Origin: an uncultured Fodinibius sp.
GTDB lineage: Bacteria > Bacteroidota > Rhodothermia > Balneolales > Balneolaceae
Direction of reading: 5' to 3'
NCBI GenBank assembly: GCA_913056235.1
Contig: CAJXMW010000004.1
Location: 334,364-398,363 of the forward strand
DNA length: 64,000 bases
Position 1 is the stretch's first letter. Each line of letters starts with the position of its first letter. The notes under the pieces were generated by a model that saw only the letters and a list, made by a program, of their open reading frames with translations, searched no databases and was not told the DNA's origin. Made by a program: the position numbers and the translations under genes. This document shows, one piece after another, positions 13,959-46,952 of this stretch.

Positions 13959-13975
13959 AGCCTTGACTAACAATT

Positions 13976-14707: not shown

Positions 14708-14750
14708 ATAAAAGATAAGTGTATGGCACACAAGGATTTACAGTAATGAG

Positions 14751-14764
14751 AGTGGGTGCTACTG
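14751..14764. repeat. att core, right copy (AGTGGGTGCTACTG)
   Basis: Identical to 6043-6056; overlaps the tRNA acceptor and T stems. Confidence 0.85.
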
Positions 14765-14827: not shown

Positions 14828-15023
14828 AAAAAGTCAATATGTGAACTTGGTCTATTGTCTTTCCCAAGAGCGCCTAATATACAGATATTTCACTCAGGAT
14901 AGCAAGGAATGATTCGTCCTGCGGATTATCATTTTTTCTTAAAAACTGAGTGCCTTTTTTCTTTCAGCTGTAAGGCAGGTTTTGTATTTTGAGGATTCTC
15001 AAAAACGGCAAGAAATTTCAACA

Positions 15024-24142: not shown

Positions 24143-24161
24143 TGTAGGATTTTTCCTTATA
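24143..24161. promoter_or_regulatory. 7-5-7 palindrome copy (TGTAGGA TTTTT CCTTATA)
   Basis: Upstream of the HEAT-repeat gene; matches the recurrent motif. Confidence 0.55.
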
Positions 24162-24219
24162 CCATGTTATTACAGGAATAACTATCCTGATAATCTAACA
24201 ATATCTAAAAAGGGAGGAT

Positions 24220-24981
24220 ATGTTGAGTAAAATAGGGAGCTATGAAATTGAATTAATTAATCTGTCTCCACGACAGTGGAATGCTTTTCTGAAGGAACAT
24301 TCGAACCTGCCTGGCCCTCGGGCAAATATCGAACTTGCGCAAGCTTTTGCTCATATCGGCACGTTGATGGATTTCAAAAAGTTGATACGTCTTGATGTCG
24401 ATGAAGCGCCCGAAAACACCCCGGAAGAGTTTCTGACTTTCTGTGGAGTGCTCGGTTATGGGCAGTATCTGGCAAAATATCACGACAGCGGATTATTGAA
24501 ACAGCTGAGAGAGCGAGCGAATGATTCGCGGTGGCGTATCCGCGAGGCCGTAGCTATGGCTTTGCAGAGTGTAGGTAAGAAAAATATGCCTCGGTTGGTA
24601 CAATATGCCAAAACCTGGGCAGAAGGGACCTACCTAGAGCAACGCGCAGCTGTTGCTGCTTTATGCGAGCCGGACTTGTTGAAGACTCGGTCAGATTGTT
24701 TCGCGGTGTTTGACTTACTGGATTGGGTAACTGCCACTATCGTGCAAAATGATGAGCATCAAGATGATGAGGGATACCAGATTCTGAAGAAAGCACTTAG
24801 TTACTGCTGGAGTGTTGCCGTTGCGATACTACCCGAGAAGGGGAAACCGATGATGGAGCGCTGGATGAAAGAGAAACATCCAATCGTAAGAAAAATTATG
24901 CGCCAAAACTTAAAAAAGAAGCGGCTTGAAAAGATTGAGCCTGAGTGGACAGCCGGTTGGCTTCATCAAATTTCGGACTAA
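24220..24981 (+). CDS. HEAT/ARM-repeat-like protein of unknown function
   Basis: Helical repeats 'NLPGPRANIELA', 'NDSRWRIREAVAMALQ' and 'YLEQRAAVAALCEPDLL'; strong RBS (AGGGAGG). Confidence 0.7.
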   Translation: MLSKIGSYEIELINLSPRQWNAFLKEHSNLPGPRANIELAQAFAHIGTLMDFKKLIRLDVDEAPENTPEEFLTFCGVLGYGQYLAKYHDSGLLKQLRERANDSRWRIREAVAMALQSVGKKNMPRLVQYAKTWAEGTYLEQRAAVAALCEPDLLKTRSDCFAVFDLLDWVTATIVQNDEHQDDEGYQILKKALSYCWSVAVAILPEKGKPMMERWMKEKHPIVRKIMRQNLKKKRLEKIEPEWTAGWLHQISD

Positions 24982-25278
24982 GGATTATTGCTCATGGTTT
25001 TCCCCACAGTGCTTAGTTTTTAAAAACTACAAATGGGCGTTGGTTCTATTTTTAAAGTCGTCTATAATAATATTCCAGATAAAAGAGGAAGGTCGTAGTC
25101 AGATTCAGCGATCTTCTATCTTTTGGTGGATCTTAGAATCAGAACATAGACTAGATACTTGAGCCTATGTAACGGTTAGTATTAACATATGTTACTTCAG
25201 AGTTTTTAAGGGAGATGCTTTGGAGTAATGCGCCGTGGGGGGAAGGGACACTAGGCTCGTTCCCTTTTTTTGATAGAA

Positions 25279-25404
25279 TTATTCGCCAACTGTTTTTCGA
25301 AAATGTTGTTTGAACCAGCTGATGGCGATCTTCGCTGCTTCATTACTCTTACCCGGTTCTTTGAAGAGGTGCTGATCAAAATGGGTTTTCCGATTGACAG
25401 GCAT
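25279..25404 (-). pseudogene. Remnant resembling the C-terminus of a dienelactone-hydrolase-like alpha/beta hydrolase
   Basis: Hand translation MPVNRKTHFDQHLFKEPGKSNEAAKIAISWFKQHFRKTVGE resembles the family ending HLFEEPG...A..WF..HL. Confidence 0.4.
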
Positions 25405-25541
25405 GGCGACAAATTAGCTCAGATTTGTAGTAAGAAGGATTGAAATTACCTAGGGCTTAATAGGCAGGCTTTGAGAGGCAGATTCCGATGGGGATGAGGT
25501 GATTTCCTTATCTCCCGATTTAAGTTGTAAGCTAGTTTGCA

Positions 25542-25560
25542 TGTAAGGTTTTTCCCTACA
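25542..25560. promoter_or_regulatory. 7-5-7 palindrome copy (TGTAAGG TTTTT CCCTACA)
   Basis: About 150 bp upstream of the sensor kinase, followed by an extra TGTAGGG half-site at 25564. Confidence 0.65.
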
Positions 25561-25708
25561 TGTTGTAGGGCCTTTCTATGATTGTAGAGAACACACAGTT
25601 GTTCTATAATAGCTAAACTACTATAGGGACATAACCTCTTGTAAGATAAACATTAGAATTTTGAATGATATATGGAAAGAAGTGTATCTTCGTGTGAATT
25701 AGAGTAAT

Positions 25709-27127
25709 ATGGCTGAAAAAGGAGCAGAAGTGGCTAAAAAAATCGCCCAACATAGTACCGATACAAAGCAAATTCTTGAACACATTACCCAGTGTGTTAT
25801 TAAGACTAATCTTGATGGCATCGTTACCTACTGGAATAAAGCAAGTGAGCAGATATTTGGCTATACAAAAGAGGAGATGCTTAATGAATCGTTAATCAAA
25901 ATTTATCCAAGCGTTGCAGAAAAACAGTTTCAGGATGACTTAGAACAATTACGAAGAGGTAACGAAGTACAGGGAAAGTGGAAAAGTCTTACGAAAGACG
26001 GATCTATTGTTTGGGTTGATGTTCATGCACGTCCCTTAAATAATGCGGCAGGCAAGCCCGAAGCTATAATTGCTTCTGCCCATGATATACAGGATTTAGT
26101 TGAAATTGAAAAAGAATTGGAAGAAAGAAAAGCACAAGCCCAGGCTATCTTGGAGACTACCGTTGATGGTATTATCACTATTGACGATGATGGTCATATT
26201 CTGAGTTTTAACCAGTCAGCGTCAAGAATTTTTGGTTACAAAGAGGAGGAAGTTCTTGGAGAGAATGTAAAAATGCTTATGCCCCAACCCCATCGCAGTA
26301 AACACGATAGTTTTATGAAACGTTATGGCGAAACGGATGAAGAACGGGTTATCGGTTATCGGCGGGAATTGACTGGAAAGCGCCAGGATGGCACCTTGTT
26401 TCCAATGGAGCTGTCGGTGAGTGAGGTACAATGGAATGGGAAGCGTATTTATACAGGAGTTGTCAACGATATTAGCGAGCGACGACGACTCGAGCAAGAG
26501 ATTCTTCATATTTCTGAGGAAGAACGCCGCAGCTTGGGCCAGGATTTGCACGACGGACTCGGTCAGATGCTTACCGGCATCAGTTTGATTAGTCAAAACT
26601 TAGCCCGAAAGCTCAAATCCAATGGTATCCCCGGGGCTGATGAGGTACAAGAGATTTCGAACCTGATAAAAGAGGCAGACGAATATGCCAAGGCTCTAGC
26701 TCATGGATTGGTGCATGTTGATTTTGAAGAAGAGGGGCTACAGGCGGCCTTGCGGCAGCTCAGTGAGCAGGCTAAAAAGTTTTTCAATGTAGATTGTACA
26801 TTGAATTTTCAGGATGATTATGATATTAACAATAATATTCAGGCGATGCACTTGTATCGTATCACCCAAGAATCTATAAGTAATGCAGTGAAGCATGGGG
26901 AGGCCGAAAATATCGAAATCAACGTGAAGAGAGAAGGTGACAGAATTCAACTTTCGATTATTGATGACGGCATAGGCTTTGAAAAAGCAAGACAAAACAA
27001 TAAGAAAAAGGGTATGGGTATTCATATAATGAAATACCGCGCAAACATACTATCAGGTCACCTAGAAACAAAAGAGACCGATAATAGGAGCTATGTAGTT
27101 TGCAGCATCCCCCAAAATAATTCATAA
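25709..27127 (+). CDS. Sensor histidine kinase: two PAS domains (second FixL-like heme-PAS) + HisKA_3/HATPase
   Basis: PAS2 'LMPQPHRSKHDSFMKRYGETDEERVIGYRRELTGKRQDG..FPMELSVSE' mirrors FixL; H-box 'QDLHDGLGQML'; 'ESISNAVKHG', 'DDGIGF' and 'GMGIHIMKYRA'. Confidence 0.9.
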   Translation: MAEKGAEVAKKIAQHSTDTKQILEHITQCVIKTNLDGIVTYWNKASEQIFGYTKEEMLNESLIKIYPSVAEKQFQDDLEQLRRGNEVQGKWKSLTKDGSIVWVDVHARPLNNAAGKPEAIIASAHDIQDLVEIEKELEERKAQAQAILETTVDGIITIDDDGHILSFNQSASRIFGYKEEEVLGENVKMLMPQPHRSKHDSFMKRYGETDEERVIGYRRELTGKRQDGTLFPMELSVSEVQWNGKRIYTGVVNDISERRRLEQEILHISEEERRSLGQDLHDGLGQMLTGISLISQNLARKLKSNGIPGADEVQEISNLIKEADEYAKALAHGLVHVDFEEEGLQAALRQLSEQAKKFFNVDCTLNFQDDYDINNNIQAMHLYRITQESISNAVKHGEAENIEINVKREGDRIQLSIIDDGIGFEKARQNNKKKGMGIHIMKYRANILSGHLETKETDNRSYVVCSIPQNNS

Positions 27128-27147
27128 AAGAAAGATGGTGGCTTACT

Positions 27148-27819
27148 ATGGGAAATAGTTTTAAAAAACGGATTGTAATTGTAGATGATCATCCGCTGAT
27201 GCGCAAAGGGTTGGCGCAAACTCTGGAAACTGACCCTGTTTTTGAAGTCGTTGAACAACTGGACAGGGGGGAAGAGCTGATCCAGAGAATTGATGAGCTA
27301 AATCCGGATCTGATTATCGTGGATGTTTCGCTGCCCGGTATGAGTGGACTGGAACTGGTGAAGCATGTAATATCTCAAAAAGAAAATCAGAAAATGCTGG
27401 TGGTGTCACGTCACGACGAGTCGTTGTATGCCGAGCGTGTAATCCGGGCCGGCGCCAAGGGATACGTAATGAAGCTGGAGGCTGGTGAAGTTCTGCTTAA
27501 AGCGGTACGCAAGGTGCTAAACGGCGGTATCTATGTCAGCGAAGAAGTAAGTGAGCGACTGTTGATGGGCATGGCCAAAGGCCAGAAAGAGGTAATGGAA
27601 TCGCCCATCGAAAAGCTCAGCGACCGCGAGCTTGAAGTGTTTGAACTGACAGGCAAAGGCAATAGTACCCGTGAAATTGCTGAGAAGTTGCATCTGTCGG
27701 TGAAGACCGTAGAATCATATCGTGCACGCATCAAAACAAAACTTAACCTGGAGAATGCAACGGAACTGATGGTACACGCTGTAAAATGGGTTGAAACTGA
27801 GCATACGGGTAGTCTGTAA
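27148..27819 (+). CDS. NarL/LuxR-family response regulator
   Basis: 'VDDHPLMRKGL', intact phospho-Asp in 'IIVDVSLPG', and HTH 'LSDRELEVF...IAEKLHLSVKTVESYRARIKTKL'. Confidence 0.95.
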   Translation: MGNSFKKRIVIVDDHPLMRKGLAQTLETDPVFEVVEQLDRGEELIQRIDELNPDLIIVDVSLPGMSGLELVKHVISQKENQKMLVVSRHDESLYAERVIRAGAKGYVMKLEAGEVLLKAVRKVLNGGIYVSEEVSERLLMGMAKGQKEVMESPIEKLSDRELEVFELTGKGNSTREIAEKLHLSVKTVESYRARIKTKLNLENATELMVHAVKWVETEHTGSL

Positions 27820-27830
27820 CGATTAAGAGT

Positions 27831-27849
27831 TGTAGGGATTTTTCCTAAC
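27831..27849. promoter_or_regulatory. 7-5-7 palindrome copy (TGTAGGG ATTTT TCCTAAC)
   Basis: 12 bp after the regulator stop codon, upstream of the atpG remnant. Confidence 0.5.
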
Positions 27850-28175
27850 GATAATTGCCACTTTAGCTTACAGCCTTCACGAGGAACTTACTGCAGCTCT
27901 CTAGCCCTCTCTGTTTTATGTTCAGGGAAGAAAGGGATATACCCTCATTTCACTGAAAGTTATCAAAAATGAAACTCATTTTTACGATGGCTGGAGAGGT
28001 ATAGAGTAAAGATGTTAGTGAAGTAGGAGGAAAGAATGCCACGCTGGGAGAGATGCTTAAACACTTGATTCCACTTTGAATAAAGGTTTCCTATGGATTT
28101 TATATAACTTCAACTGAATATTATAAATCTATGTCAATCATTAAGTTATAAACTTCAATTGAAAAAAATAACCTC

Positions 28176-28601
28176 TTGGAGTTGAACACTGGATACCAAC
28201 CAACTGTAGAGCAGTTATTACCTATTGACATGCACTGGCTACAGCAGTTGACCCGGCAAGAATGGGAGGTGCGCTCCTTGCCAACTTATTCTATGGAGGC
28301 AACGGAGTTGGTTTCAGCTTTGACGAAGGAATTGATGTTTGTATCCATCTACAAGGCGTTAGCCAGTTCACTGTCAGCGGAGAACAACAGCAGATTAACT
28401 GCTATGCAGCTGGCTGAAAAGAAAATAACGGAGATGATTGAAGACCTTACCAAAGCCTATCGGAGCCAGCGTCAAAATAATATAACCGAAGAAATCCTGG
28501 ATATTATGGCCAGTTTTGAGGTGCTGCAAACACAAGAGAAGCAACAAGTGCAATCAGCGGCAGGCCCCCGTCTACATAAACCAACCGGAAGTTCTGTGTA
28601 G
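28176..28601 (+). pseudogene. atpG: C-terminal fragment of an alternate (N-ATPase-type) F1 gamma subunit
   Basis: 'ELMFVSIYKALASSLSAENNSRLTAMQLAEKKITEMIEDL...RSQRQNNITEEILDIMASFEVL' is the gamma C-terminal signature; the N-terminal half and all other atp genes are absent. Confidence 0.8.
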
Positions 28602-28615
28602 TGGATTTACCGACA
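28597..28615. promoter_or_regulatory. 7-5-7 palindrome copy (TGTAGTG GATTT ACCGACA)
   Basis: About 90 bp upstream of DUF5335-cgs, with extra half-sites GTAGGA and TGTAGGC nearby. Confidence 0.45.
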
Positions 28616-28707
28616 ATAGAGTAGGACAAGACCTGTAGGCAATCTATCCCAGTTTTTACTGATATTGCAAAGGTTAATAACATTATTTTAATCATAGAGG
28701 GTTCGTT

Positions 28708-29034
28708 ATGACTTCCAAAAAAATAACCAAACGACAATGGCAGAAGTATTTCGACACCTTTTCATTGACGTTTCTCAAAGATAAACAGCCCGAGTATATT
28801 GAAATACAAGTTATGTCGGAACAGTTAGGTGTTCAGCCCCAAACAAAGTGGACGCTACTTAAGGGAATCTCTTATGATCCCAAGAGTGACATGCTGGAAA
28901 TACAGGTTGACAAAATGGAGCATATGATCGCCCATCCCAAAGAAATATATGTAAATGAAGAAGATAATGGTTGGCTTACGGGAATGATGATCATACAAAA
29001 AGGTGGAGAACGAAATATTATCGACATTCGATAG
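28708..29034 (+). CDS. DUF5335-family protein
   Basis: 'WQKYFDTFS', 'LGVQ', 'LLKGISYDPKSDMLEI' and 'HMIAHPKEIYV'. Confidence 0.75.
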   Translation: MTSKKITKRQWQKYFDTFSLTFLKDKQPEYIEIQVMSEQLGVQPQTKWTLLKGISYDPKSDMLEIQVDKMEHMIAHPKEIYVNEEDNGWLTGMMIIQKGGERNIIDIR

Positions 29035-29118
29035 AATAAAAAACATAGTCAGCATGTCGCTATTTGTGAGTATAACCACAACATAGATATAGGCTGTCTG
29101 TACTAAAGTAAGGCGGGT

Positions 29119-32100
29119 ATGCCCACAGACACACAAGTTCACTACAATAAACAATACCTGGAAGAGGAGATACGCCAGCTTGCCACCATCCAACAGGCTA
29201 CGCTTGATAGTAAGCCTTTACAGCCTATCAGTCCTATTATTGCGGATGCCAAAGATACATTAGTTGAAGCCTATCGTGTGTTGGCCCGTGCGGCCAAACA
29301 AAACAGAGAGCTGAGTTCGGCCGGGGAATGGTTGATTGACAACTTTTACATCATCCAGGAGCAGATGGTACAGCTTAACGCGGACCTGCCCGAATCGTAC
29401 TATCGAAAGCTTCCGCGGCTGGTTCAGGGAGAGTATCGTGGATATCCCCGTACCTTTGAGATTGTTCAGATGCTGGCGACAATCAGCGACAATACGATCG
29501 ACCAGGATAATACGACTATAGCTGTCCGGGCTTACCAAGAGATTGACACGCTTAGTTTAGCTGAGATGTGGTCAGTGCCACTAATGAATCGTCTGGCTCT
29601 GATTGTGAGGCTGGCAGAACGAGCCAAAAAGCTGCTCAGAGACCGCCGAATGCAAGATGAAATTGAAAAGATCTTACACGAAAAGATTGACGAAGAGGCA
29701 GATGAACCCGGTTATTTGCTGCGTAAGCTTTCTGAAATTGTTGGCCAACAAAACGATACTCAACGGTTTCTGGTGATATTAGCCCAACAGCTTCAAAAAA
29801 GGGGGATGCTCACTGAAAACGAGCGCCGCTGGTTCGATTATAAGTTCTCTCGTTGGGAGACAAACCTTGAAGAACAGCTTCGAGGCCGTACGCAACAAAC
29901 TTCTCGGCTCCACCTCAGCATTCAGAATGCGATCTCATCGCTGCGCGTGGTTTCAGAGACCGACTGGGCTGATTTTGTAGAAAGTTGTTCGGTGGTAGAA
30001 CGTATCCTGCGCCTGGACCCGGCGGACATGTATCACCAGATGGATTTTAGCACGCGCGACACTTATCGCAAAAAGGTTGAGAAGCTAAGTGCACATTCGA
30101 ATTTTAGCGAGCAGAAAGTAGCCGAGCAGGCGCTGCTTATGGCCGAAAGTGCTGCTCAGAATGGTGCCACCAGTAAAGGCAAAAAAGTGCATATTGGGTA
30201 CTATCTGGTCGGGGATGGATATGAAGGGCTTATCGACAAACTTAAATATAACAGGCCGTTCGACGAGTGGGTGCTGAAGAAAGGCGAAGAACAGCCAGCT
30301 ATCTACTTTTCCATTATCGGATTGCACCTGGTGATATTACTCGGAATTGTGGGACTCTTCACCAATTTTTTAATGCAAGAATGGTGGATGATTACACTGA
30401 CCCTGCTGATTACAGTTCTTCCGGCGCTTGATTTATCGATCGTGTCAACCAATCGGCTACTCTCCTTTTTTGTGTCGCCCCGGATACTACCTAAACTCGA
30501 ATTTAAGGACGAAATTCCGCATAAATATCGAACTGTAGTGATTGTTCCGACGATGCTTTCTTCCCCCCGTGATGTTGCTGATCAGTTCGAGGCACTTGAA
30601 ATCAGGGCCCTGGCCAATACGAACCCGTCGCTGCAGTTCGCTTTGTTGGCAGACTTCCATGATGCCCCGCATGAAAGTATGCAAGACGACAGCGCTATCC
30701 TGGAAGAAGCCCAACAGCAAGTTAACCGATTAAACTTGCAGTACAAGAGTAAGTATGGAGATAAATTCCTGTTCTTCCATCGAAAACGTCGCTGGAACGA
30801 AGAGGAAGACACGTGGATGGGGTGGGAGCGCAAACGGGGTAAGTTGGAAGAGTTTAATCACCTGCTAAAAAATCCCGATGCCGATACCACATATAGCATC
30901 GTAAATGATAATTTCTTGCAGACGCTTACGAAGTTTCCCCTGCAGTTTGTAATTACTCTTGATGCAGACACCAAACTGCCGCCGGGTAGTGCCCGCATGC
31001 TGATAGGTACGGCCGCCCATCCGTTAAACAGGGCAGAGGTCGATAAGGAGGGTAATATTGTTGAAAGAGGTTACGGTATTTTTCAACCCCGTATTTCTAT
31101 AGCACCGAAATCGGCGAATCGGACGTGGTTTGCGCGCATTTTTTCGGGTAATGTGGGGTTGGATCCCTATACCACGGCCGTTTCCGATATTTATCAGGAT
31201 TTGTTTGGAGAGGGCATTTTTACAGGCAAGGGATTGTATGACCTTGCTGTTTTTGAACAGGTTCTGGGTGATAAGTTTCCCGAAAATGCTATTCTCTCAC
31301 ACGATTTGCTCGAAAGTACCTATCTACGGGCGGCCTTGGTCACTGATATTGAGCTCTTTGATGCCTATCCCCGCAATTACCTGAGCTTTGCCAAACGCAA
31401 TCACCGTTGGATACGTGGGGATTGGCAAATTTTGTACTGGCTGTTTACGAAAGTACCTGCAAGAGGCCAAAGTAGTGAGTCAAATCCCATCAGTGGTATT
31501 TCAAAGTGGAAAATATTTGACAATATGCGTCGCTCGCTCAACCCGGTAGCGCTGATTATATTCTTGCTTGCCGGCTGGGTACTGCTTCCGGGATCAGCAT
31601 TCGTATGGACGGCAGCAGTATTCGGGATTCTGGCCTTTCCCATTTATTCAAGTTTTTCAACTGATATTTTTAGGCGTCCCGAACGCGTTAATTGGAAACT
31701 GTATATCGAGAAAATAAGGGCTGATCTGAAGACCAATACACTGCAGGCCGTAACAAGTTTCTTGTTTTTGCCTCACCAGGCTGCAATTTCGCTTGATGCA
31801 ATAATTCGGACATTGTATCGGATGTTTATATCGCAAAAAAAAATGTTGGAGTGGACCACGGCGAACCAAGCTGAACGCCTGCATTCAAACGGCACATTTC
31901 TGAGCTATTGGCTTAACATGTGGTTTAATATCTTTTGGGGTATTGTAAGCCTTATATTGGTCAGTATTTATCATTCAACAATATTGATCATTGCGATCCC
32001 GGTTTGCTTGGGTTGGATATTAGCTCCCGGAATAGCCTTTTATCTGACCCGTACGCCGGAGGTATTTGAGCATCGGGAGTTGCCAGAAGGGGATGTCAGG

Positions 32101-37752: not shown

Positions 37753-37780
37753 TTTTTTGCTGAAAAAAGACGGGAACTTT

Positions 37781-37799
37781 TGTAGGAGTAATACTTACA
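37781..37799. promoter_or_regulatory. 7-5-7 palindrome copy (TGTAGGA GTAAT ACTTACA)
   Basis: Intergenic, about 105 bp upstream of the CheB-like gene; extra TGTAGGG half-site at 37827. Confidence 0.6.
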
Positions 37800-37903
37800 A
37801 TTAGAAGGTATATGATCGTACAATATTGTAGGGTTGTAGTATCTATAATTGAACATCAGCTGAAAAATAAATACCCCAGAAAAGGTGAGTTAAGCGGGTT
37901 TAA

Positions 37904-39049
37904 TTGGAGGGTCTTATGGATTCAATCAAAGTGCTTATCCTAGATGAAAATGTACTTGTTAGACGTGCTGTATCAAATATTCTAAATAAATATGATGTAT
38001 TCGATGTATTTTGGATGGCCGATCGGTCGCAGGATGTTACAGAAGTGATAAATCAGAATTATCCGGATGTAGCGTTGCTGAACATCGATAATATGGAGTC
38101 CTCCGGTTTTACTATCCTGAATACGCTGCGTATGAATTTTCCAAATTTGCCGGTCATTGTCATTTCTCCACGTGATAATGAAGGAGCCGAAGCCGCAATT
38201 AATGCCCTGCGAATGGGAGCGATTGATTTTATCAGCAAACCGGCACACAAGAACCTGATACTATTTGCAGAACGACACCTTGAAAAGCGACTTGGTCCCA
38301 TTATCAAGGCAGCGAAGAAAATTCGTGAACGGCATCATTTGAACGAGGAGATCCTGCAAACGCTGGTTCATCCCCAAAAAACGTTTGAACAAATTGGTAG
38401 TGATCCCAAAGCAGATACCCCTGCGGAACTGGTCGTGATAGGTGGATGCACGGGGGGCACACAAACACTGTTTTCGCTGATTTCAGAATTGCCGGATGAT
38501 TTGGAAGTGCCTGTGGTTGTTGTGCAACACCTGCCGCGCATATATACGGCATACTTGGCCCAAAAATTAGATTCCGTGGCTCATGTTAACGTGCGTGAAG
38601 TACAGGATGGAGATCCGCTAGAGGGAGGTAATGTATGGATAGCACCTGGTGGTTATCAGTGTGAAGTAGGGTTGTCAGGTTATCAAAAAGTGTTGAAAAC
38701 ACATCGGGGCATGCGCGAAAATAATATGCGGCCTTCTATCGACATCCTTTTCCGGTCTGCAGCTAAAGTATATGGCAAGAAGACGCTCGGGATATTATTG
38801 AGTGGCTGTGGCTATGATGGGCTGTCGGGCGCAGAAGATATTCGAAATATGGGTGGACAACTTATTACACAGGATCCACGAACTGCCATAGCTGCCGAGC
38901 TTCCGCTTGCCGCTATCCGTAATGGGTTGACCAGAGAGTATTATTCACCGGAAGACTTAGCTAAACAAATTGTATATCGAGTTGCTCGTGTTAATGAGAC
39001 TTCTGTTGAGGGGGAAACCGATAGGGTTGGCAGTTCACTTTTATTTTAG
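37904..39049 (+). CDS. cheB: CheB-like REC + methylesterase protein with atypical active sites
   Basis: REC 'KVLILDE...ALLNIDNM...GAIDFISKP'; esterase 'VVIGGCTGG', 'VVQHLP', 'RPSIDILFRS', 'LLSGCGYDG' and 'QDPRTA'. Confidence 0.85.
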   Translation: MEGLMDSIKVLILDENVLVRRAVSNILNKYDVFDVFWMADRSQDVTEVINQNYPDVALLNIDNMESSGFTILNTLRMNFPNLPVIVISPRDNEGAEAAINALRMGAIDFISKPAHKNLILFAERHLEKRLGPIIKAAKKIRERHHLNEEILQTLVHPQKTFEQIGSDPKADTPAELVVIGGCTGGTQTLFSLISELPDDLEVPVVVVQHLPRIYTAYLAQKLDSVAHVNVREVQDGDPLEGGNVWIAPGGYQCEVGLSGYQKVLKTHRGMRENNMRPSIDILFRSAAKVYGKKTLGILLSGCGYDGLSGAEDIRNMGGQLITQDPRTAIAAELPLAAIRNGLTREYYSPEDLAKQIVYRVARVNETSVEGETDRVGSSLLF

Positions 39050-39105
39050 TGAAAAAAATAAATAGAAGCTATATACCAGCGCAAATAGCTGGAGTGTAAA
39101 TACAG

Positions 39106-41769
39106 ATGGACAGATCAGGTGATGGTAAAGTAAACATACAATCTCCATGGTCGCTGGAAAAAGAGACGGTACTTGAGAAGCTGAACAGTGATGCGCAGCA
39201 AGGCTTGTCAGAATCGGAAGTAACCCGGCGTCTGCAAGATTATGGTCCTAATGTGCTGAGGAGACATGAAGAAAGGAGTCTACTGAGTATTTTGTGGGAT
39301 CAGTTCAAAAGTATCATTATTGCACTTCTTGTAGCCGCGGCTCTATTTGCGTTTTGGCTGGGCGAAATTATCGACGGTTCGGCCATTGTCGTTGTAATTC
39401 TGTTGAATACCTTGATTGGTTTTGTTACCGAGTTACGGGCCGTACGATCCATGGAGGCCCTCTTCAAATTGGGTGAAGTTAAAACGCGGGTACTCCGTGG
39501 TGGTAACGTACAAGAGATCGATGCCCAGAAGCTGGTTCCCGGTGATATTGTGCTTGTTGAGGGTGGGGATATTATTACTGCTGATATGCGAATTGTTGAT
39601 AGCTCAAAACTCCAGGCCGATGAATCGGCATTAACTGGAGAAAGCCTCCCTGTTACGAAGAAAAATAAGGCCGTTGCGGCTGATACGGTACTTGCAGAAC
39701 GCAGTAGTATGCTGTACAAAGGTACAGCGGTTACGCGCGGGGCCGGTGAAGCTGTCGTGGTTGCGACCGGCTTGCAAACAGAACTTGGGCATATTTCATC
39801 GCTTGTAGAAGAGGCCGAAGATGAGCAGACGCCGCTGCAGGAACGTCTTGATACACTCGGCTATCGGCTGATTGGAGTGACGCTTGTTATTGCAGTTTTT
39901 GTAATCGGATCGGGTATAGTAGCTGGTAAAAAAATGTACCTGATGATAGAGACTGGTATAGCTTTGGCCGTAGCAGCTATTCCGGAGGGCCTACCCATTG
40001 TGGCAACCATTGCACTGGCCAAAGGCGTCCGCATTATGGGTAAGAAAAATGCCCTCATCAACAGACTTTCGTCGGTTGAGACATTAGGCTCAACCGGAGT
40101 GATCTGTACGGACAAAACCGGCACTCTGACAGAGAACAAAATGACGGTAACACAGATATATCTGCCAGATAGAGAGCCGGTGAAGCCTGAAAAGGATCTT
40201 GATTCCGGGGATGAGCAGCACGACAGCAAATTGGATGCTGATATTAGACTCGCACTTGAAACTGGTACTCTTTGTAATAATGCTACGCTTAACACCAAAG
40301 AGGATGATGGGACCGGCGATCCGATGGAGATCGCTTTGTTACAAGTGGCACGTAAAGGGGGAGTGGATATCGCAGAACTAAGCCATCGCTATCCCGAAGA
40401 AAGGGAAGAGGCTTTTGATCCTGAAGTTAAAATGATGGCTACCTGGAATCAGCAGGAAAAGGGTTTTAAGGTGAGCGTAAAAGGAGCTCCAGGTGCCGTC
40501 TTGGAAGCCTGCAGTACCGTTATGATGGATGGCAATACTATGGCTTTGGACGAAGAACAAAGACAACATTGGCAGAAGGTTAATGAAGATCTAGCCGCCC
40601 AGGGATTACGTATTATCGGTCTTGCCGTAAAAGAAGTGGAAGAGGTTGACGGAAATCCATACCAGGATTTATCGTGGGTTGGATTAGTAGCTCTCGCTGA
40701 TCCCCCGCGGACCGACATCAAGCCCGTTATAGAGCAGTGCTATCAGGCAGGGATACGAGTTGTGATGGTAACGGGTGATCAGGTAGCGACGGCTAAATAT
40801 ATAGCAGAATCAATTGGGTTACAGAATGCCGATCTGGTCATCCACGGGAATGAGCTGGTAACCGATACTGATAAATCAAATTCAGAGTTGTTGAAGGCCG
40901 CAGTTTTTGCTCGCATAAGCCCACAGCAAAAACTTGATCTTATTGGTCTGTTTCAGGGTCAGGGACAGATTGTGGCTATGACTGGCGACGGCGTTAATGA
41001 TGCCCCCGCTCTCAAAAAAGCCGATATTGGTATAGCTATGGGACAGCGTGGGACACAGGTGGCTCGCGAAGCAGCTGATATGGTGCTCACAGATGATGCT
41101 TTTTCATCCATTGTGACTGCCATTGAACAGGGAAGGGTCATCTTTGGGAACATCCGACGGTTTATCTATTACCTAATGTCGTGTAATGTTAGTGAAGTGA
41201 TGGTAGTTGGATTGGCGTCGTTGTTAGGTACACCGTTACCCATCCTGCCGCTGCAAATCCTTTTCTTAAATCTGGTGACCGATGTATTTCCAGCTCTAGC
41301 CCTTGGCGTGGGCGAAGGCGAAGAAGGAATTATGCAGCATCCGCCGCGCGATCCGGATAATCCTATCCTTGGCAAAAAGCAATGGTTAGGTATTGCTTTC
41401 TATGGTTTCATAATCACACTTTCTGTGTTGGGAGCCCTGTTTATTGCCTTGCATTATCTGGAATTGCCTGCTCGTGAGGCGGTAACAATTTCTTTTGTAA
41501 CACTGGCAATGGCCCAGCTGTGGCATGTGTTCAATATGATTGGCCCAAATGCAAACCTTTTTGATAACACCATCACCCGGAATCCATACATTTGGGGAGC
41601 GTTGGTACTTTGTTTAGGATTATTGGGAGTAGCACTTTATGTACCTGCAATAGCAAGTGTACTAGAGGTAAGTGCCCCACATTTATATGGATGGATCACC
41701 GTGCTGGGAATGAGCTTGATCCCGTTTGTAGTAGGGCGGTTAAGAAAGGTTCGGTCATTGGGTGAATAA
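39106..41769 (+). CDS. Cation-translocating P-type ATPase (type II, Ca2+/CtpF-like)
   Basis: 'ALTGES', 'VAAIPEGLP', 'CTDKTGT', 'MVTGD', 'GDGVNDAPAL' and 'LNLVTDVFPALALG'. Confidence 0.95.
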   Translation: MDRSGDGKVNIQSPWSLEKETVLEKLNSDAQQGLSESEVTRRLQDYGPNVLRRHEERSLLSILWDQFKSIIIALLVAAALFAFWLGEIIDGSAIVVVILLNTLIGFVTELRAVRSMEALFKLGEVKTRVLRGGNVQEIDAQKLVPGDIVLVEGGDIITADMRIVDSSKLQADESALTGESLPVTKKNKAVAADTVLAERSSMLYKGTAVTRGAGEAVVVATGLQTELGHISSLVEEAEDEQTPLQERLDTLGYRLIGVTLVIAVFVIGSGIVAGKKMYLMIETGIALAVAAIPEGLPIVATIALAKGVRIMGKKNALINRLSSVETLGSTGVICTDKTGTLTENKMTVTQIYLPDREPVKPEKDLDSGDEQHDSKLDADIRLALETGTLCNNATLNTKEDDGTGDPMEIALLQVARKGGVDIAELSHRYPEEREEAFDPEVKMMATWNQQEKGFKVSVKGAPGAVLEACSTVMMDGNTMALDEEQRQHWQKVNEDLAAQGLRIIGLAVKEVEEVDGNPYQDLSWVGLVALADPPRTDIKPVIEQCYQAGIRVVMVTGDQVATAKYIAESIGLQNADLVIHGNELVTDTDKSNSELLKAAVFARISPQQKLDLIGLFQGQGQIVAMTGDGVNDAPALKKADIGIAMGQRGTQVAREAADMVLTDDAFSSIVTAIEQGRVIFGNIRRFIYYLMSCNVSEVMVVGLASLLGTPLPILPLQILFLNLVTDVFPALALGVGEGEEGIMQHPPRDPDNPILGKKQWLGIAFYGFIITLSVLGALFIALHYLELPAREAVTISFVTLAMAQLWHVFNMIGPNANLFDNTITRNPYIWGALVLCLGLLGVALYVPAIASVLEVSAPHLYGWITVLGMSLIPFVVGRLRKVRSLGE

Positions 41770-41774
41770 CATAA

Positions 41775-42090
41775 TTACTTAATGATGCCCGCCTTTCGCA
41801 CTCCTTGGTAATCAATAATATGGCTTTCATTCCACTGTTGGTCGCCATCTTTTAAGATAAGCTGATAATAACTGCAAACTGACTTTTCAAATTCTAGACT
41901 TAGAATGATGTAGAGGTTCTTTTCTTCTTTGGCGAATCCCATTTTATTATTCCAGTGATCAAGGAAGATAAAGTCTTGATTTTCAGCAATATCATGGCAA
42001 AGATCCGGGTGTTGGCCAATCATTTTTTCGAGAAATTCCGTAACTAGCCGGATTTCACGCTGATTAAATTGCTTTTTTTGAAAATAGCAT
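41775..42090 (-). pseudogene. Small hypothetical protein, apparently frameshifted in an A7 run
   Basis: ATG CTA TTT TCA AAA AAA GCA ATT TAA; removing one A gives MLFSKKQFNQREIRLVTEFLEK fused in frame to the 82-aa ORF 41775-42023. Confidence 0.4.
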
Positions 42091-42224
42091 GGTAGTGGGC
42101 TCTCTCGTTTAGTATGTTAATTACTAAACTATACGAAAAAAATAATTAAAACCCTATGCCATTATATATCTAAGTTAAAGTTACCTTTCTCAAGTAATAC
42201 ATGGAGTTTCGCTGATTAGTGGAT

Positions 42225-42326
42225 AATCCATTTAATCTCTCAATGGTCATTCAATACCAGATGCCCAAACACAGCGATATGAAATTGGTGGTATACGAAG
42301 TATTAGAACTGGAAACGCTTAAGTGA
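42225..42326 (+). pseudogene. Remnant of a T9SS/Por secretion C-terminal domain
   Basis: Hand translation NPFNLSMVIQYQMPKHSDMKLVVYEVL resembles the NPFNPxTxIxYxLPxxxxVxLxVYDxLG motif; no upstream gene body. Confidence 0.55.
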
Positions 42327-42342
42327 CTTCAACCTTTAGAGC

Positions 42343-42747
42343 ATGTGGCTGTGCATGAAGTATGAAATTCCTGAGATGCTGAAAGGTAGAGAAGGTGCCA
42401 TCGTGAATGTATCATCTATAGCGGGACTCTTGGGCTCAACGGGTATTCCGGCATATGTATCCAGCAACCACTGAATCAATAGCTTAACAAAAACCGCGGC
42501 CTTGGATTATGCTGATAAAAAACTTCGTATTAATTCCGTATGTCCGGGTGCAATTCAAACGCCCATGATTGATAGGTTTGTGGGAGGAGCGACAAAAGAA
42601 CGCAATGAGTTGGTTGCCCAATATCCGATGGGCAGATTTGGTCGGTCGCAAGAAGTAGCGGAAGCCATTGTCTGGTTTTATTCCAACAAAGCATCATTTA
42701 TCACTGGTCAAACATTGGCCGTTGACGGTGAATTTATAGTACATTAA
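42343..42747 (+). pseudogene. SDR-family oxidoreductase, C-terminal half with internal stop
   Basis: WLCMKYEIPEML..GAIVNVSSIAGL..GIPAYVSSNH*INSLTKTAALDYA..RINSVCPGAIQTPM; in-frame TGA at 42472-42474; the N-terminal Rossmann part is missing. Confidence 0.8.
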
Positions 42748-42865
42748 CGGTGAAAAGGCTCGGTATTTTAGTCATTATCCGGGTTGGAATTGCTTCCATT
42801 ATATTTCATGTTTAGGGCATGCTATCGCGAACTAAAAAGCAAATAGTATAGACTCGATTATTATC

Positions 42866-45100
42866 ATGAGCAATATTTTAATCACCGATCTTGAACACCA
42901 GGGACCCGGCGATATTCTGGGAGCAATCAGTGGGGAAACTGATGTTGATCCCGGGTTAATTGGTAATATTGACATTGAAAATTCCAGAGCCCTTGTAGAA
43001 GTAGGTAATGGCCAGGCACAGGAACTTGCTTCGCAGCTGGATGGTCGAAAGGTTGGTAATTCCCGCGTTTCGGTGAGCAGGGTGACCGTCGAAGACCAAG
43101 CAAACATCAAAGATATATTGAACTATATTGATCAATTTCGCCGGCTTGTAGAGCTAGAGCGCAAACAGGAGATGCGCGAGCACGAACAGAGTATCCTGAA
43201 TTTATCTGCTGAGCAGCGAGAAGCCCAAGGGAAAGCCATTCTGCATCTGAAAGGCCGAGATGAAGGTATGGCGCTGGAAGGAAAGCTGGTAAAGTTTTTG
43301 CGGCAGCACTCCGGCGAACCTCTGCCGGATACTGAAATTGCTGTTGGCGATCTGGTCATGCTCTCACGAAAAGATCCACTGCTTGATGATAATCCAACGG
43401 GGACCGTGGTTGAAAAGACCAATTACTCGATGACCGTTGCTTTTGATCAGCCCCGAAGCTTCTTGTTTGGCAAGGGATTGCGTATGGACCTGTATGTTAA
43501 TGATATCACCTATCAGCGCATGAAAGAAGCATTGGTCCAGCTACAGGATGCCGATGGTCGATTGGCGGAGCTGAGAAATATCTTTGTGGGTCTCCAATCC
43601 CCGGAAGAGTCTGCCCAAGCCGAGATTGAGCAGTGGTTTAATGAGCAGCTCAATGAATCGCAGAAAGAGGCAGTTGCCTATAGTGTAGGTGCCGAAGATG
43701 TCCATCTTATCCACGGACCGCCGGGCACCGGTAAAACAACAACAGCAATAGAAGTGATTGAACAGGCGGTGGCCGAGGGCCAAAAAGTGTTGGCCACAGC
43801 TGCATCGAACACGGCCGTTGATAACATACTGGATTTTCTGCTGGATCGTGGGGTGGAGGCCGTCAGAGTAGGTCACCCGGCCCGCGTTACACCTCAGTTG
43901 AAAGAACATACGCTCGACAGCCTGATCCGGGAACACGAGAAGCATCAGGAATCGGAAAAGCTGCGTAACAAGGCTTTTGATTTAAAGGATCAGCAGGATG
44001 AGCATACTCATCCGTCGGGCAAGTATCGACGGGGCATGAGTAACAAGAAAATCAAACAGCTAGCTGAGCAGGGCAGTAGCTCCAGAGGTGTTTCTGAGGA
44101 GAAAATAAGATCAATGGCCCGTTGGATTCAGCTGCAGGAAGAAATCGATGAGCTTTTCGAAGAGGCCGATGAGTTGCGCGAAGAGGCTGTGGATGAAGTG
44201 CTGAGTGACAAGCAGGTGATTTGCACAACCAACAGTACTGCTGGCAGCGATCTCTTAGAGAATCGATCGTTTGATCTTGTTGTGATTGACGAAGCAACAC
44301 AAGCCACCGAGCCGAGTTGTCTAATTCCGATCTCCCATGGCAACAAAGTGGTTATGGCCGGCGATCATCGCCAGCTGCCACCAACGGTCAAAAATATGGA
44401 GGCTATAGAAGAAGGGCTGAAAGAGACTCTCTTTGAACGTCTGGCAGAAAATCATCCCGGGAACAAGAGTATGCTTCGCATGCAATACCGCATGCACCAG
44501 GATATTATGAGATTCTCCAGCGAGCAGTTTTACGATGGCCAGCTTGAGGCTGACGAAAGTGTTCGAGAACATCTGCTTTCTGATTTCGATCTTGATGAGA
44601 ATTCGTTTGATAATAATGTTGCCCGGATTTTAAATACCACAGAGCCGGTTACTTTTGTGGATACTTCGGATATCGATGCCCGGGAGCGTAGTCGGCAGGG
44701 TTCTACATCAAAGGAAAATCCTGAGGAAGCGCTGCTGGTAGCCAAGCTGGCTGATAACCTGCTGCGAGCAGGAATGAATCCTGAGGATATAGCCGTCATA
44801 AGTCCGTATCACGATCAGGTTGATCTGGTGGATCGCAAGATTGGTGTCGAAGATCTGGAAGTCAAAACGGTAGATGGGTTCCAGGGACGGGAAAAAGAGG
44901 CAGTAATCATATCTCTGACCCGCAGTAATGCTAAAAATGCAATTGGCTTCCTGGAAGATGTGCGTCGGCTAAATGTTTCATTGACCCGCGCCAAACGTAA
45001 GCTGATTGTGGTAGGGGATCGTTCGACGATAACCAGTCATAAAACTTATCAGCGGTTCGTGGATTATGTGGAAGAACAGGGAACAGTAGTTGAACTGTAA
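42866..45100 (+). CDS. SF1 helicase, IGHMBP2/Upf1-like, with N-terminal DbpA-type RNA-binding domain
   Basis: N-terminal '[24 protein letters not shown]...ALVEV'; '[11 protein letters not shown]', 'VIDEATQ', '[10 protein letters not shown]', 'QYRMH', '[11 protein letters not shown]' and '[11 protein letters not shown]'. Confidence 0.9.
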
Positions 45101-45131
45101 ATTTTGAGCTGATTTAGAAAATACTAAAAGA

Positions 45132-45163
45132 AACCCTGAAAGGGTTCAAAACCTTTCAGGGTT
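45132..45163. repeat. REP-like palindrome AACCCTGAAAGGGTTCAAAACCTTTCAGGGTT
   Basis: Near-identical copy at 51937-51969; both lie between convergent genes. Confidence 0.7.
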
Positions 45164-45551
45164 AAATTATATAAAATAAGCCCGTGATTTCCTTTCGCCC
45201 CGAATTACCGGGATTCAAGTTCTGGAGGTATAATCTCAGTCCCGTTAGGGACACCCTCAACCACTGGCTTTGATGTCAGCACTTTTCATGTGCCAACAAA
45301 TGCAATAACTAAAAGACTCTCTCTCTCAAAAAAAGACCGTTGCACACTTCCGAATGTACCTTGTAGGGCATGGATCCGAGAAGAAGCCGACGGTCATTGA
45401 TTCTAGGCTTGTTATCCCGTGCACCGTAGCGCCCGTGAAACTGTGCAATTTCAAAATGTCAATTTCTCTCTCTCAGTATACTCCCTCTTGATTCTGTAAT
45501 TAATATAACAGCTGTCGATAGATTCGTATGTAGGCTGTCGCTGTAATTGAC

Positions 45552-45570
45552 TGTGGAAGTTTAACCTACA
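45552..45570. promoter_or_regulatory. 7-5-7 palindrome copy (TGTGGAA GTTTA ACCTACA)
   Basis: Intergenic; additional TGTAGGC half-site at 45529. Confidence 0.45.
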
Positions 45571-45698
45571 ATTCGTAAGAGTTATACCTTCTCAGTTTGT
45601 GGCGATTTCTCCTGTTTATATTCCATCACCTTCAATAGGGCAGGCAACAGGAGAACCTGTTCGAGCTTTTTAAAAAGTGTTTCCATGGGCCGTTTCCG

Positions 45699-46820
45699 TT
45701 AGATGGAGTTGACCCTCAGCTGCCAGAAGTAACTAAACAGTGTACCAAGGCCGAAGAATATCAGTAACAGGTTGAGAAATGGACCTGCATAGGGCAGGGC
45801 TGTGAGTATGGCAATTAATATCATACCGAGGGCCAGTCCCCAGAAATAATCAGTATAGACTTCTGTGGCTTTGAAATAACGGATGCTTTTGGTTCCCAGT
45901 GTCAGAGCTACCAGCAAGAAGCTTACAAACAGGGCCAGGCCGTAGAGCATCATCACAATGAACGAAAGCGGAATAGTGAGGATGAGGACTATCAGAATGA
46001 TGATAGCGATGGGGATAGCCAGGAATAACAGTAATCCCAGACCGGTGTTCCGTAGGTAACGTTCGGTCGAAAAGCGGTACAGGTCGGTCATCGTTTCGCG
46101 GAATACCAGAATCAGAATAATGCCAATAATAAGCATCGACACATAGAACCAAATGCTGAAGAGTAGTGCCGTTCCCCAGGCTTCATCGGGATCCTCGACA
46201 ATGATATTCAAATCTGCCGGCGCATTTTTGATGTCTTCTCTGGTAATCTCATGTGGAGTTGAAATGGTTGTACTTGAGGCCGGCTTATAAGCTTCACCGA
46301 ATGCAATATCATTGCCGTAGAGTTCTACAAAGTTGTTTGCCGTTCCATTGACCATAATATCGTTGCCGGCGATCCGCAGCCAACCGTCCACGGTTCCCCC
46401 TTCGAAGATGATCTCATTGCCGGCCAGCGCTACATTGCCCCTGATGTGTGCATTCGCCGCTATCCGAACCTCATTGCCCGCTGCAAAGAGGTCGCCTGCC
46501 ACTTCACCATCGATGACGATTGTTTCTCCGGCAGCTATCAGCATATCGCCAACCGAGCCCCGGAGCGTTACCGACTGTGCTACAACGATAGCATCATCGC
46601 TTACCAAGCCGTGAATGGTCAGGTTGCGCGAAGCTGCAAAAATATCATCACCGAGATATCCAAATACATCCACGAACTGCCCGGCTGCTATTACATTCGT
46701 TGAAATCGTATCACTTTCATTAATTCGCACGGTGGTTCCAAATCGGTAGTCCGATCCCTGTGCTACCAAAAGTACCGGTAATGCCAACGCCATCATTCCC
46801 GTCAAGATGAATTGTCTCAT
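45699..46820 (-). CDS. Polymer-forming cytoskeletal (bactofilin-like beta-helix) membrane protein
   Basis: Signal peptide; repeats '(I/V)xGxVxDD(A/L)xxAG', 'IDGEVAGDLFAAG' and 'AHIRGNV'; C-terminal multi-TM region ending 'FGLGTL'. Confidence 0.75.
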   Translation of the reverse strand: MRQFILTGMMALALPVLLVAQGSDYRFGTTVRINESDTISTNVIAAGQFVDVFGYLGDDIFAASRNLTIHGLVSDDAIVVAQSVTLRGSVGDMLIAAGETIVIDGEVAGDLFAAGNEVRIAANAHIRGNVALAGNEIIFEGGTVDGWLRIAGNDIMVNGTANNFVELYGNDIAFGEAYKPASSTTISTPHEITREDIKNAPADLNIIVEDPDEAWGTALLFSIWFYVSMLIIGIILILVFRETMTDLYRFSTERYLRNTGLGLLLFLAIPIAIIILIVLILTIPLSFIVMMLYGLALFVSFLLVALTLGTKSIRYFKATEVYTDYFWGLALGMILIAILTALPYAGPFLNLLLIFFGLGTLFSYFWQLRVNSI

Positions 46821-46933
46821 AATGAACTCCCTTAGTTGTTTGGCCAAAGTTATTTATAGGCAGAATAATTATTTAACGAATGGCATTTTGCAGGATGATA
46901 CCGCCGATACTGTACCGGATAGAAGGTAATTTC

Positions 46934-46952
46934 TGTAGGTATTTTGCCTACA
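46934..46952. promoter_or_regulatory. 7-5-7 palindrome copy (TGTAGGT ATTTT GCCTACA; extends to TTCTGTAGG...CCTACAGAA)
   Basis: About 110 bp upstream of the bactofilin-like gene; the most perfect copy. Confidence 0.65.

Follow-up and report, generated by a model that had tools for sequence, protein, structure and literature searches.

A 7-5-7 palindrome around a putative haem-PAS two-component system of an uncultured Fodinibius: candidate operator of a predicted stress and envelope regulon

The locus and its seven palindromic sites

The 64 kb stretch of DNA analysed here (hereafter the window) comes from an uncultured Fodinibius sp. of the Balneolaceae and carries a two-component system, composed of a putative haem-binding sensor kinase and a NarL-family response regulator, around which a 19 bp palindrome recurs at seven places. 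The palindrome had been pointed out in an earlier inspection of the letters alone (the sequence-only reading), and is examined here as a candidate operator of the adjacent regulator. The genes concerned are as follows; Pfam bears out the gene calls of the sequence-only reading (AAs, amino acids).

23161-24054, minus strand: DeoC aldolase gene (Pfam)
24220-24981, plus strand: gene for a HEAT-repeat-like protein of 253 AAs, predicted target (Pfam HEAT_2 at 23.6 bits, below the 27.7 cut-off)
25709-27127, plus strand: sensor kinase gene with PAS, putative FixL-type haem PAS, HisKA_3 and HATPase domains (Pfam)
27148-27819, plus strand: receiver-GerE (NarL-family) response regulator gene (Pfam)
28176-28601, plus strand: 3' fragment of an ATP synthase gamma gene, atpG (Pfam ATP-synt, model positions 179-284 of 285 only)
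28708-29034, plus strand: DUF5335 gene, predicted target operon with cgs (Pfam)
29119-37752, plus strand: cyclic beta-1,2-glucan synthase gene (cgs), GH94, 2877 AAs (Pfam)
37904-39049, plus strand: CheB-like receiver-methylesterase gene, predicted target operon with the P-type ATPase gene (Pfam)
39106-41769, plus strand: P-type ATPase gene (Pfam; by NCBIfam Ca-type (IIA), PMR1/SERCA-type, below the equivalog cut-off)
42866-45100, plus strand: SF1 helicase gene (Pfam)
45699-46820, minus strand: DUF8173 (bactofilin-like) gene, 373 AAs, predicted target (PF26514 and a 373-AA database product)

All seven sites are intergenic, that at 28597 overlapping the final 5 bases of the atpG fragment. They are given below with their rank and score in the window under a weight matrix made from relatives, together with the one other match that ranks among them.

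24143..24161, plus strand: candidate operator 1, TGTAGGATTTTTCCTTATA, 58 bp upstream of the HEAT-like gene, with the DeoC aldolase gene reading the other way (rank 6, 17.8 bits)
25542..25570 including an extra half-site, plus strand: candidate operator 2, TGTAAGGTTTTTCCCTACA, putative autoregulatory site 148 bp before the kinase gene (rank 1, 23.4 bits)
27831..27975 including the hsp20 promoter and leader, plus strand: candidate operator 3, TGTAGGGATTTTTCCTAAC, orphaned, the hsp20 gene being deleted in the window (rank 4, 18.6 bits)
28597..28615, plus strand: candidate operator 4, TGTAGTGGATTTACCGACA, 92 bp before DUF5335-cgs (rank 5, 17.9 bits)
37781..37799, plus strand: candidate operator 5, TGTAGGAGTAATACTTACA, 104 bp before the CheB-like gene (rank 3, 18.9 bits)
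45552..45570, minus strand: candidate operator 6, TGTAGGTTAAACTTCCACA (minus strand), immediately past what is left of a deleted MMPL gene; the weakest site of the seven (rank 8, 11.3 bits)
46934..46952, minus strand: candidate operator 7, TGTAGGTATTTTGCCTACA, 113 bp before the DUF8173 gene (rank 2, 19.6 bits)
11057: within the primase gene of a mobile island, probably a chance match (rank 7, 14.8 bits)

The core pattern TGTAGG-N7-CCTACA, allowed at most two mismatches, has exactly 7 matches in the 64 kb, and these are the seven sites at the coordinates first reported; 1.3 matches are expected and none of 100 shuffles reaches 7, a clear excess over the shuffled control. The degenerate pattern of the sequence-only reading, TRTARGR-N5-YCYTAYA, fared less well, matching exactly at only two of the sites and lying at the chance level when two mismatches are allowed (7 found versus 5.9 expected in the window), and it was replaced; its 7-5-7 shape, however, is recovered by the matrix from relatives. 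Because the TGTAGG core was picked after the data had been seen, an unbiased search was also run, in which every palindromic 6-N(0-12)-6 dyad in the intergenic DNA of the window (9 kb) was scored by the number of distinct intergenic regions that hold it; this measure replaced a raw count because low-complexity, self-overlapping patterns dominated the shuffles. TGTAGG-N7 occurs in 7 regions, a number that 5 of 200 shuffles reach when half-sites with at least 2 G/C are admitted, while none of 200 exceeds 5 when at least 3 G/C are required.

The weight matrix was built from 55 sites of relatives with the window left out. Its consensus is TGTAGGG-AAWTT-CCCTACA (TGTAGGGAAWTTCCCTACA), again of 7-5-7 shape, and six of the seven sites take ranks 1-6 of the window at 17.8-23.4 bits, against a background of 0.3 matches per 64 kb at 14 bits or more. 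The earlier remark, made by eye, that no copies were noticed outside 24-47 kb stands in that the other 41 kb are empty, save for the 14.8-bit coding match at 11057. This match lies in the PriCT_2 primase gene (10100-11293) of a prophage- or satellite-like island at ~6200-14830, in which the G+C content dips to 36%. The island also has an integrase gene (6223-7536), a DUF3631 gene, a small-terminase-like gene and a capsid gene (12580-13833), and ends at a tRNA gene (14753-14827, minus strand).

Counterparts of the sites in related genomes

Orthologous loci were taken from metagenomes, Logan assemblies and 80 species-level genomes. Their conserved gene order is DeoC (minus strand), HEAT, kinase, regulator and hsp20, next either a short-chain dehydrogenase (SDR)-phosphoenolpyruvate (PEP) synthase-N-ATPase operon or a P-ATPase gene, and then DUF5335, cgs, CheB-like and P-ATPase. 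In 1.26 Mb of such loci the core pattern with at most two mismatches has 110 matches; in 2 Mb of unrelated loci, used as background, the rate is about 1.2 per 64 kb. Counted from the start of the kinase gene, the matches peak at -1500 to -1250, before the HEAT-like gene (14 matches), at -250 to 0, before the kinase gene itself (25 matches), and at +1750 to +2250, before hsp20 (19 matches). Each of the seven window sites is matched by a site at the corresponding gene position in other Balneolaceae, the kinases of which show 56-82% identity.

That reading placed the sites upstream of the HEAT gene, the kinase gene, DUF5335-cgs, the CheB-like/P-ATPase pair and the bactofilin-like (DUF8173) gene, and these assignments hold. 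A counterpart of operator 1 is present at the same position in 13 lineages, and in an unanchored MAFFT alignment operator 1, with the block that follows it, is the most conserved part of the DeoC-HEAT spacer near HEAT. The HEAT-like gene is conserved beside the two-component pair in relatives, and DeoC is divergent from HEAT at their HEAT-type operators too. A second inverted repeat, (C)AGAAT-N4/5-TATTCT(G), lies at 24175-24190 and in 12 relatives, 14-30 nt after the operator and overlapping a -10-like hexamer, and may be bound by a different factor. Operator 2 has a third half-site, TGTAGGG, 3 nt downstream, and its 19-mer is unchanged in the 98%-identical strain L081, in which both flanks carry substitutions. 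Of 49 AT-rich related loci, 30 have such a putative autoregulatory site, 130-250 bp upstream of the kinase gene. Counterparts of operator 4 precede DUF5335 in at least five lineages, and L161, L163, L168 and L184 share its atypical arms. Those of operator 5 stand before CheB-like genes and score 16.6 bits in L245 and 12-13 bits in L180, L189, L210 and L164, while operator 7 has counterparts 106-112 bp before DUF8173 in L244, L245 and L246. Relatives of the DUF8173 protein were found by a protein database search; a search by peptide words in genome contigs gave none. We note that the CheB-like gene is paired with the Ca-type P-ATPase gene and has no chemotaxis genes nearby in the window, and that its pairing with cgs is conserved in several lineages; the kinase might phosphorylate the CheB-like protein as a second target.

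The two remaining sites had been assigned to an "atpG remnant" and a "decayed slot", and both need to be renamed. By the synteny of relatives and the similarity of its leader to L161, the site at 27831 (operator 3) is an orphaned hsp20 promoter: in 23 loci an operator follows the regulator gene, and it always precedes hsp20. The leader is 82% identical to that of L161 up to ~27975, where similarity is lost, to resume only at the DUF5335 operator; therefore hsp20 and the genes downstream of it, through most of the N-ATPase operon, have been deleted and the leader and the 3' fragment of atpG have been left. The gamma gene is the last gene of the N-ATPase operon that relatives carry at the place of the fragment. 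The "decayed slot" at 45552 (operator 6) is the place of a deleted MMPL gene, of which the last 16 codons survive at 45586-45633 (minus strand). L244-L246 have DUF8173-MMPL operons, and at the position of operator 6 relatives carry stronger sites just after MMPL (13.4 bits in L245 and 16.1 bits in L246), which share with operator 6 the same CCTACA 17-18 nt downstream. The stretches of gene decay in the window are 27975-28601, 42300-42750 and 45101-45698, and a fragment of a short-chain dehydrogenase gene lies in the gap at 41770-42865.

Candidate target families were obtained by clustering the proteins encoded downstream of sites of at least 13 bits in the 49 AT-rich loci. The kinase is found 30 times, Hsp20 23 times, the HEAT-like protein 13 times, tandem universal stress proteins (USPs) and DUF892 six times each, the P-ATPase at least three times, and the CheB-like and DUF5335 proteins 2-5 and 3-5 times, respectively. 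DUF8173 is a candidate target in 4 lineages. Further targets are a 426-AA protein without a Pfam family and a dienelactone-hydrolase-like protein, and a Pyr_redox_2 enzyme, an amidase and a phosphoribosyltransferase are single cases. The hsp20 unit of relatives usually runs on into SDR, PEP synthase and a beta-epsilon-AtpI-AtpR-a-c-b-alpha(-gamma) operon, a gene order that we take to be the N-ATPase layout. The DosR-like content proposed from the window is extended by relatives, in which genes for Hsp20, tandem USPs, DUF892 and the Ca-type P-ATPase also stand behind the operator, and the suggested link to cyclic glucan synthesis is borne out by gene order: at least 15 lineages have cgs inside the two-component cluster or next to it.

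Departures from the consensus were counted in 100 sites: of 247 such arm pairs, 224 depart on one side only and 18 in a compensatory way. Because the deviations are mostly one-sided, the palindrome is, as far as base sequence can tell, a protein site rather than a hairpin. In the window sites 4-6 of the 7 arm positions are complementary, the flanks of the copies are unrelated, and no T-run follows any of the seven.

Conserved elements at fixed offsets stand only on the gene side of the operator. A TAnnnT hexamer starts 22 nt after it in all 13 HEAT promoters; in the 32 kinase promoters TAnnnT occurs at +45/46 (15 cases) or at +22 (7 cases), and a GTARG half-site starts 5-6 nt past the operator in 13 and on the other side in none. 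TACA starts 20 nt after the operator in 21 of 23 hsp20 promoters; overall, 28 gene-side flanks have it at +20, almost all belonging to the 33 hsp20, DUF8173, CheB-like and post-MMPL promoters, versus 3 of 86 flanks on the other side. If the hexamers are -10 elements, the operator centre would lie near -41 to -43, and in two-site promoters near -64 to -66 with a proximal half-site, so that the promoter geometry would place the centre ~41-43 or 62-66 bp before the start. NarL/LuxR-type activators are often centred near -42. The geometry fits an activator overlapping the -35 region, as in the DevR promoters, where sites are packed and the proximal site covers the -35 element (PMC3029386). A sigma-54 promoter was considered for the conserved GG...GC of the hsp20 leader and rejected, the spacing being 8 nt and not 10.

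The sensor kinase, the response regulator and known systems

The kinase is soluble, has the domains PAS-PAS-HisKA_3-HATPase_c and belongs to a family common in Balneolaceae. Its second PAS domain matches the FixL haem domains in the PDB with E values of 1e-35 to 1e-31 and ~50% identity, His199 aligns with His200 of BjFixL (RSKH199DSFMKRY versus RSRH200DSYISRY), and equivalents of Arg206 and Arg220 of the FixL FG loop are present. By this homology it is a FixL-type haem domain with a proximal His, and hence a putative haem binder, in agreement with the haem-PAS kinase of the sequence-only reading. The NCBIfam family sens_FixL_Rhizob gives the kinase 166.8 bits versus a cut-off of 850 and matches residues 88-298 only. 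Cysteines are scattered in the kinase and form no cluster in the first PAS domain.

The regulator gene adjoins the HisKA_3 kinase gene, with 20 bp between them, and its product has receiver and GerE domains (Pfam Response_reg 5.6e-26, GerE 3.5e-17), in which the residues DD, D58, S87 and K109, including the phospho-acceptor Asp, can be seen. The assignment to the NarL family made earlier is confirmed by these domains and by the PDB, where DevR/DosR is the best solved relative (2e-27), followed by NarL (6e-26) and FixJ (8e-12). It scores 84.5 bits with the NCBIfam FixJ equivalog versus a cut-off of 255, and neither kinase nor regulator reaches any NCBIfam equivalog cut-off. By the Pfam content of the window genes, the regulator is the only DNA-binding protein of this island of regulon genes.

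Two observations in other genomes tie the operator to the regulator. The Balneolaceae metagenome-assembled genome SMAG_U2017 (L186) has kept DeoC, HEAT, kinase, cgs and CheB-like genes and has no regulator gene; hsp20, DUF5335 and the operator are missing as well, the best matrix score in its 21 kb being 5.4 bits, and this is a natural co-loss of regulator and operator sites. A scan of 185,579 genomes for exact TGTAGGGRAWTYCCCTACA gave 60 loci (L247-L306), versus ~17 that we estimate by chance, and in 26 of them a NarL-type regulator gene, usually with a HisKA_3 kinase gene, lies in the 8-kb stretch, often within 100 bp; adjacency by chance is put at a few percent, a figure that is our own estimate rather than a measured control. 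Eleven of these loci are from Gemmatimonadota and 11 from Anaerolineae/Chloroflexota, their regulators are 36-48% identical to that of the window, and their sensors differ. Perfect operators beside NarL-type pairs in other phyla suggest that the operator specificity is common to the regulator subfamily beyond Balneolaceae.

Among characterized systems DosR-DevS/DosT of M. tuberculosis and OsdR of Streptomyces are similar in having an autoregulated NarL-family regulator and a haem-based gas-sensor kinase (here predicted) with a HisKA_3-type core. DosRS shares with it a ~20-bp palindromic operator with GGG/CCC triplets and packed sites near -35, and the DosR regulon includes the same alpha-crystallin/Hsp20, tandem USP and Ca-type P-ATPase targets, a likeness of content and not regulon homology. 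The differences are that haem would here sit in a FixL-type PAS domain and there in GAF domains, that the regulator is only ~30% identical to DevR, and that cyclic glucan synthase, N-ATPase, PEP synthase and DUF8173-MMPL are extra targets here. The base-contacting DosR residues Lys182 and Asn183 align with Glu and Ser (DevR KTVKNY versus KTVESY). The label "DosR-like" given by the sequence-only reading is therefore apt for gene content, autoregulation and the closest solved relative of the regulator, and does not extend to the operator. The Dev box is TTSGGGACTWWAGTCCCSAA, 20 bp (PMC2275270), whereas TGTAGGG-N5-CCCTACA is 19 bp with other outer bases and GGG/CCC 3 bp closer together. In DosR, too, the conserved core of the regulon sits beside the regulator gene (PMC5069765).

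The FixLJ system is similar in its haem PAS (~50% identical to that of FixL, with the key residues), and both regulators are members of the FixJ/NarL superfamily. In the regulator of the window the recognition helix is KTVESYRARI, similar to that of FixJ, which we take to be RTVEVHRANV. The FixL of rhizobia has a HisKA core in place of HisKA_3, and the window has no FixK cascade and no nif/fix targets. The half-site TAAGGGAAA resembles both the FixJ site of S. meliloti fixK, TAAGTAATTTCCCTTA, and the FixJ class GTAGTTTCCC obtained by systematic evolution of ligands by exponential enrichment (SELEX) (PMC4999443); those are even palindromes, with one base fewer or more in the centre.

NreBC of staphylococci is an O2-sensing cytoplasmic PAS-HisKA_3 kinase with a NarL-type activator that acts on a GC-rich palindrome (PMC8139620, PMC5694512). 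NreB carries [4Fe-4S] on four Cys where the present kinase has a haem-type PAS and no Cys cluster, and the targets of NreC are nitrate and nitrite respiration genes. The NreC box of Fedtke et al. 2002 is reportedly TAGGG-N4-CCCTA, that is, with the same half-sites and a spacer one base shorter than the N5 found here. More generally, a GerE-type helix-turn-helix dimer on an inverted repeat of ~16-20 bp is typical of NarL and LuxR proteins. The NarL heptamer TACYYMT differs in that TAC stands outside the C-run in the opposite order and in its 7-2-7 spacing, and the lux/tra boxes have a CTG-N10-CAG core. The present system would work in the manner of DosRS and NreBC, but it falls outside the orthologous groups of FixLJ, DosRS and NreBC.

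Readings of the palindrome

With a probability that we put at about 0.75, the palindrome serves the adjacent two-component system as its operator, through which a dimeric regulator would activate a stress/envelope regulon under a haem sensor. The haem PAS of the kinase would sense a diatomic gas, most likely low O2, and phosphorylate the NarL-family regulator, and the phosphorylated dimer would bind TGTAGGG-N5-CCCTACA and activate six units: the HEAT-like gene, its own kinase-regulator operon, the hsp20 unit (only the promoter of which is left), DUF5335-cgs, CheB-like/Ca-type P-ATPase and DUF8173 (the MMPL partner of which is lost). The same operator would in relatives also control tandem USPs, DUF892 and the hsp20-SDR-PEP synthase-N-ATPase operons, and the whole would make up a stress or dormancy-like programme resembling the DosR regulon. 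We infer that this particular regulator is the binder, that it activates and does not repress, where the operator lies relative to the start site, and that the signal is O2.

Several observations weigh against it. The raw-count version of the dyad test on the window alone is not significant and ranks TGTAGG-N7 third. The 11.3 bits of the site at 45552 are a score at which the background is 1.6 matches per 64 kb, and the site at 27831 is degraded in the 98%-identical strain L081. The TACA of the hsp20 class could be either a -10 or a -35 element, the latter placing the operator near -62, and a scan for the sigma-70 consensus around the sites equals the shuffle expectation. Two small metatranscriptome runs give thin coverage, with contigs over the DeoC, kinase, regulator, cgs and CheB-like genes and no transcript ends. 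The co-loss of regulator and operator comes from one genome. Finally, in an alignment the proximal His is replaced in 8 of 26 kinase orthologues (P0024, P0026, P0030, P0031, P0041, P0057, P0060 and P0074), mostly from Fodinibius/Aliifodinibius, and the loci of such species still bear strong operators; therefore the signal may differ among lineages and need not be O2 in all of them.

This last point bears on an alternative in which the regulator does bind the operator and the signal is something other than oxygen (for example NO, CO, the redox state or whatever ligand the first PAS domain may bind), and in which the programme could serve osmotic or envelope stress instead of hypoxia. Haem-PAS domains are not confined to one gas, no ligand is assigned to the first PAS domain, and cgs, N-ATPase, Ca-ATPase and MMPL would suit ion and envelope homeostasis in halophiles. 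The ~50% identity to FixL haem domains with the His200/Arg206/Arg220 equivalents speaks against it, as does the hsp20/USP/Ca-ATPase content, since these genes also belong to the mycobacterial hypoxia regulon; we regard it as somewhat unlikely. Less of the evidence suits a factor encoded elsewhere, for example a global redox/stress regulator that also controls the two-component operon. Operators also occur beside the 36-48% identical regulators of other phyla, so that the specificity is not unique, and the second inverted repeat of the HEAT promoters may belong to another factor. Yet the regulator is the only DNA-binding protein of its island, the operator was lost together with the regulator gene in L186, 26 of the 60 perfect sites adjoin a NarL-type regulator gene, and the 7-5-7 layout is unlike that of CRP/FNR/NtcA-type sites (TGTGA-N6-TCACA, TTGAT-N4-ATCAA and GTA-N8-TAC), which were rejected on spacing. 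A factor from elsewhere is thus distinctly improbable.

Readings without any regulatory role carry very little weight. A REP- or MITE-like repeat (repetitive extragenic palindrome or miniature inverted-repeat transposable element), or RNA hairpins or terminators, would suit a short intergenic palindrome of which one copy (27831) lies 12 bp past a stop codon and another (45552) between convergent genes, but the imperfect arms with their one-sided deviations, the lack of a T-run and of shared flanks, the positions conserved relative to genes at 56-82% protein identity when the flanking DNA is not, and a further 41 kb of the window devoid of copies save one coding match, with all seven adjoining regulon genes, make this highly improbable. 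A chance cluster of seven matches could be argued from the post hoc choice of the pattern and from the degenerate pattern and count-based test, which are not significant; with a matrix trained without the window that ranks six of the seven as its top six, with sites kept at orthologous positions and with 0/200 shuffles in the region-count test, it can be practically dismissed.

What the operator of the two-component system adds, then, is a predicted operator and regulon that have not been described, for a system of well-known type, the mechanism of which (a regulator dimer on a palindrome) is ordinary. A literature search found no paper on this operator or regulon, and nothing relevant linking cyclic beta-1,2-glucan synthesis or N-ATPase to a gas sensor. 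An operator and a gene list are hereby predicted for an uncharacterized haem-sensor two-component system widespread among halophilic Balneolaceae and their relatives, for which hardly any regulatory genetics exists. They suggest a DosR-like stress programme (Hsp20, USPs, Ca-ATPase) outside Actinobacteria, with another sensor and another operator, and tie cyclic beta-1,2-glucan synthesis and N-ATPase to a putative gas sensor. More tentatively, and with rather less than even confidence, we suggest that one NarL subfamily has kept TGTAGGG-N5-CCCTACA across Rhodothermia (Balneolaceae and Salinibacter relatives), Gemmatimonadota, Anaerolineae and others, and that in Balneolaceae it came under a FixL-type haem sensor, giving a dormancy-like programme independent of DosR in which low O2 is tied to envelope and ion homeostasis. 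If this is true, the functions tied to low oxygen would be the making of cyclic beta-1,2-glucan, a Na+-type N-ATPase, a Ca-ATPase and export by an MMPL protein.

A separate, RNA-like element is conserved between the HEAT-like gene and the kinase operator (25192-25275, plus strand). Rfam gives no match to this hairpin, nor to any of the operator sites. The element consists of an 11-bp hairpin (TTACTTCAGAG / CTTTGGAGTAA) with an 18-nt loop containing AAGGGAGATG, then TGCGCC, and then an intrinsic terminator, the stem of which varies with compensatory changes. It is present in at least 10 Balneolaceae lineages, and in two copies in L085.

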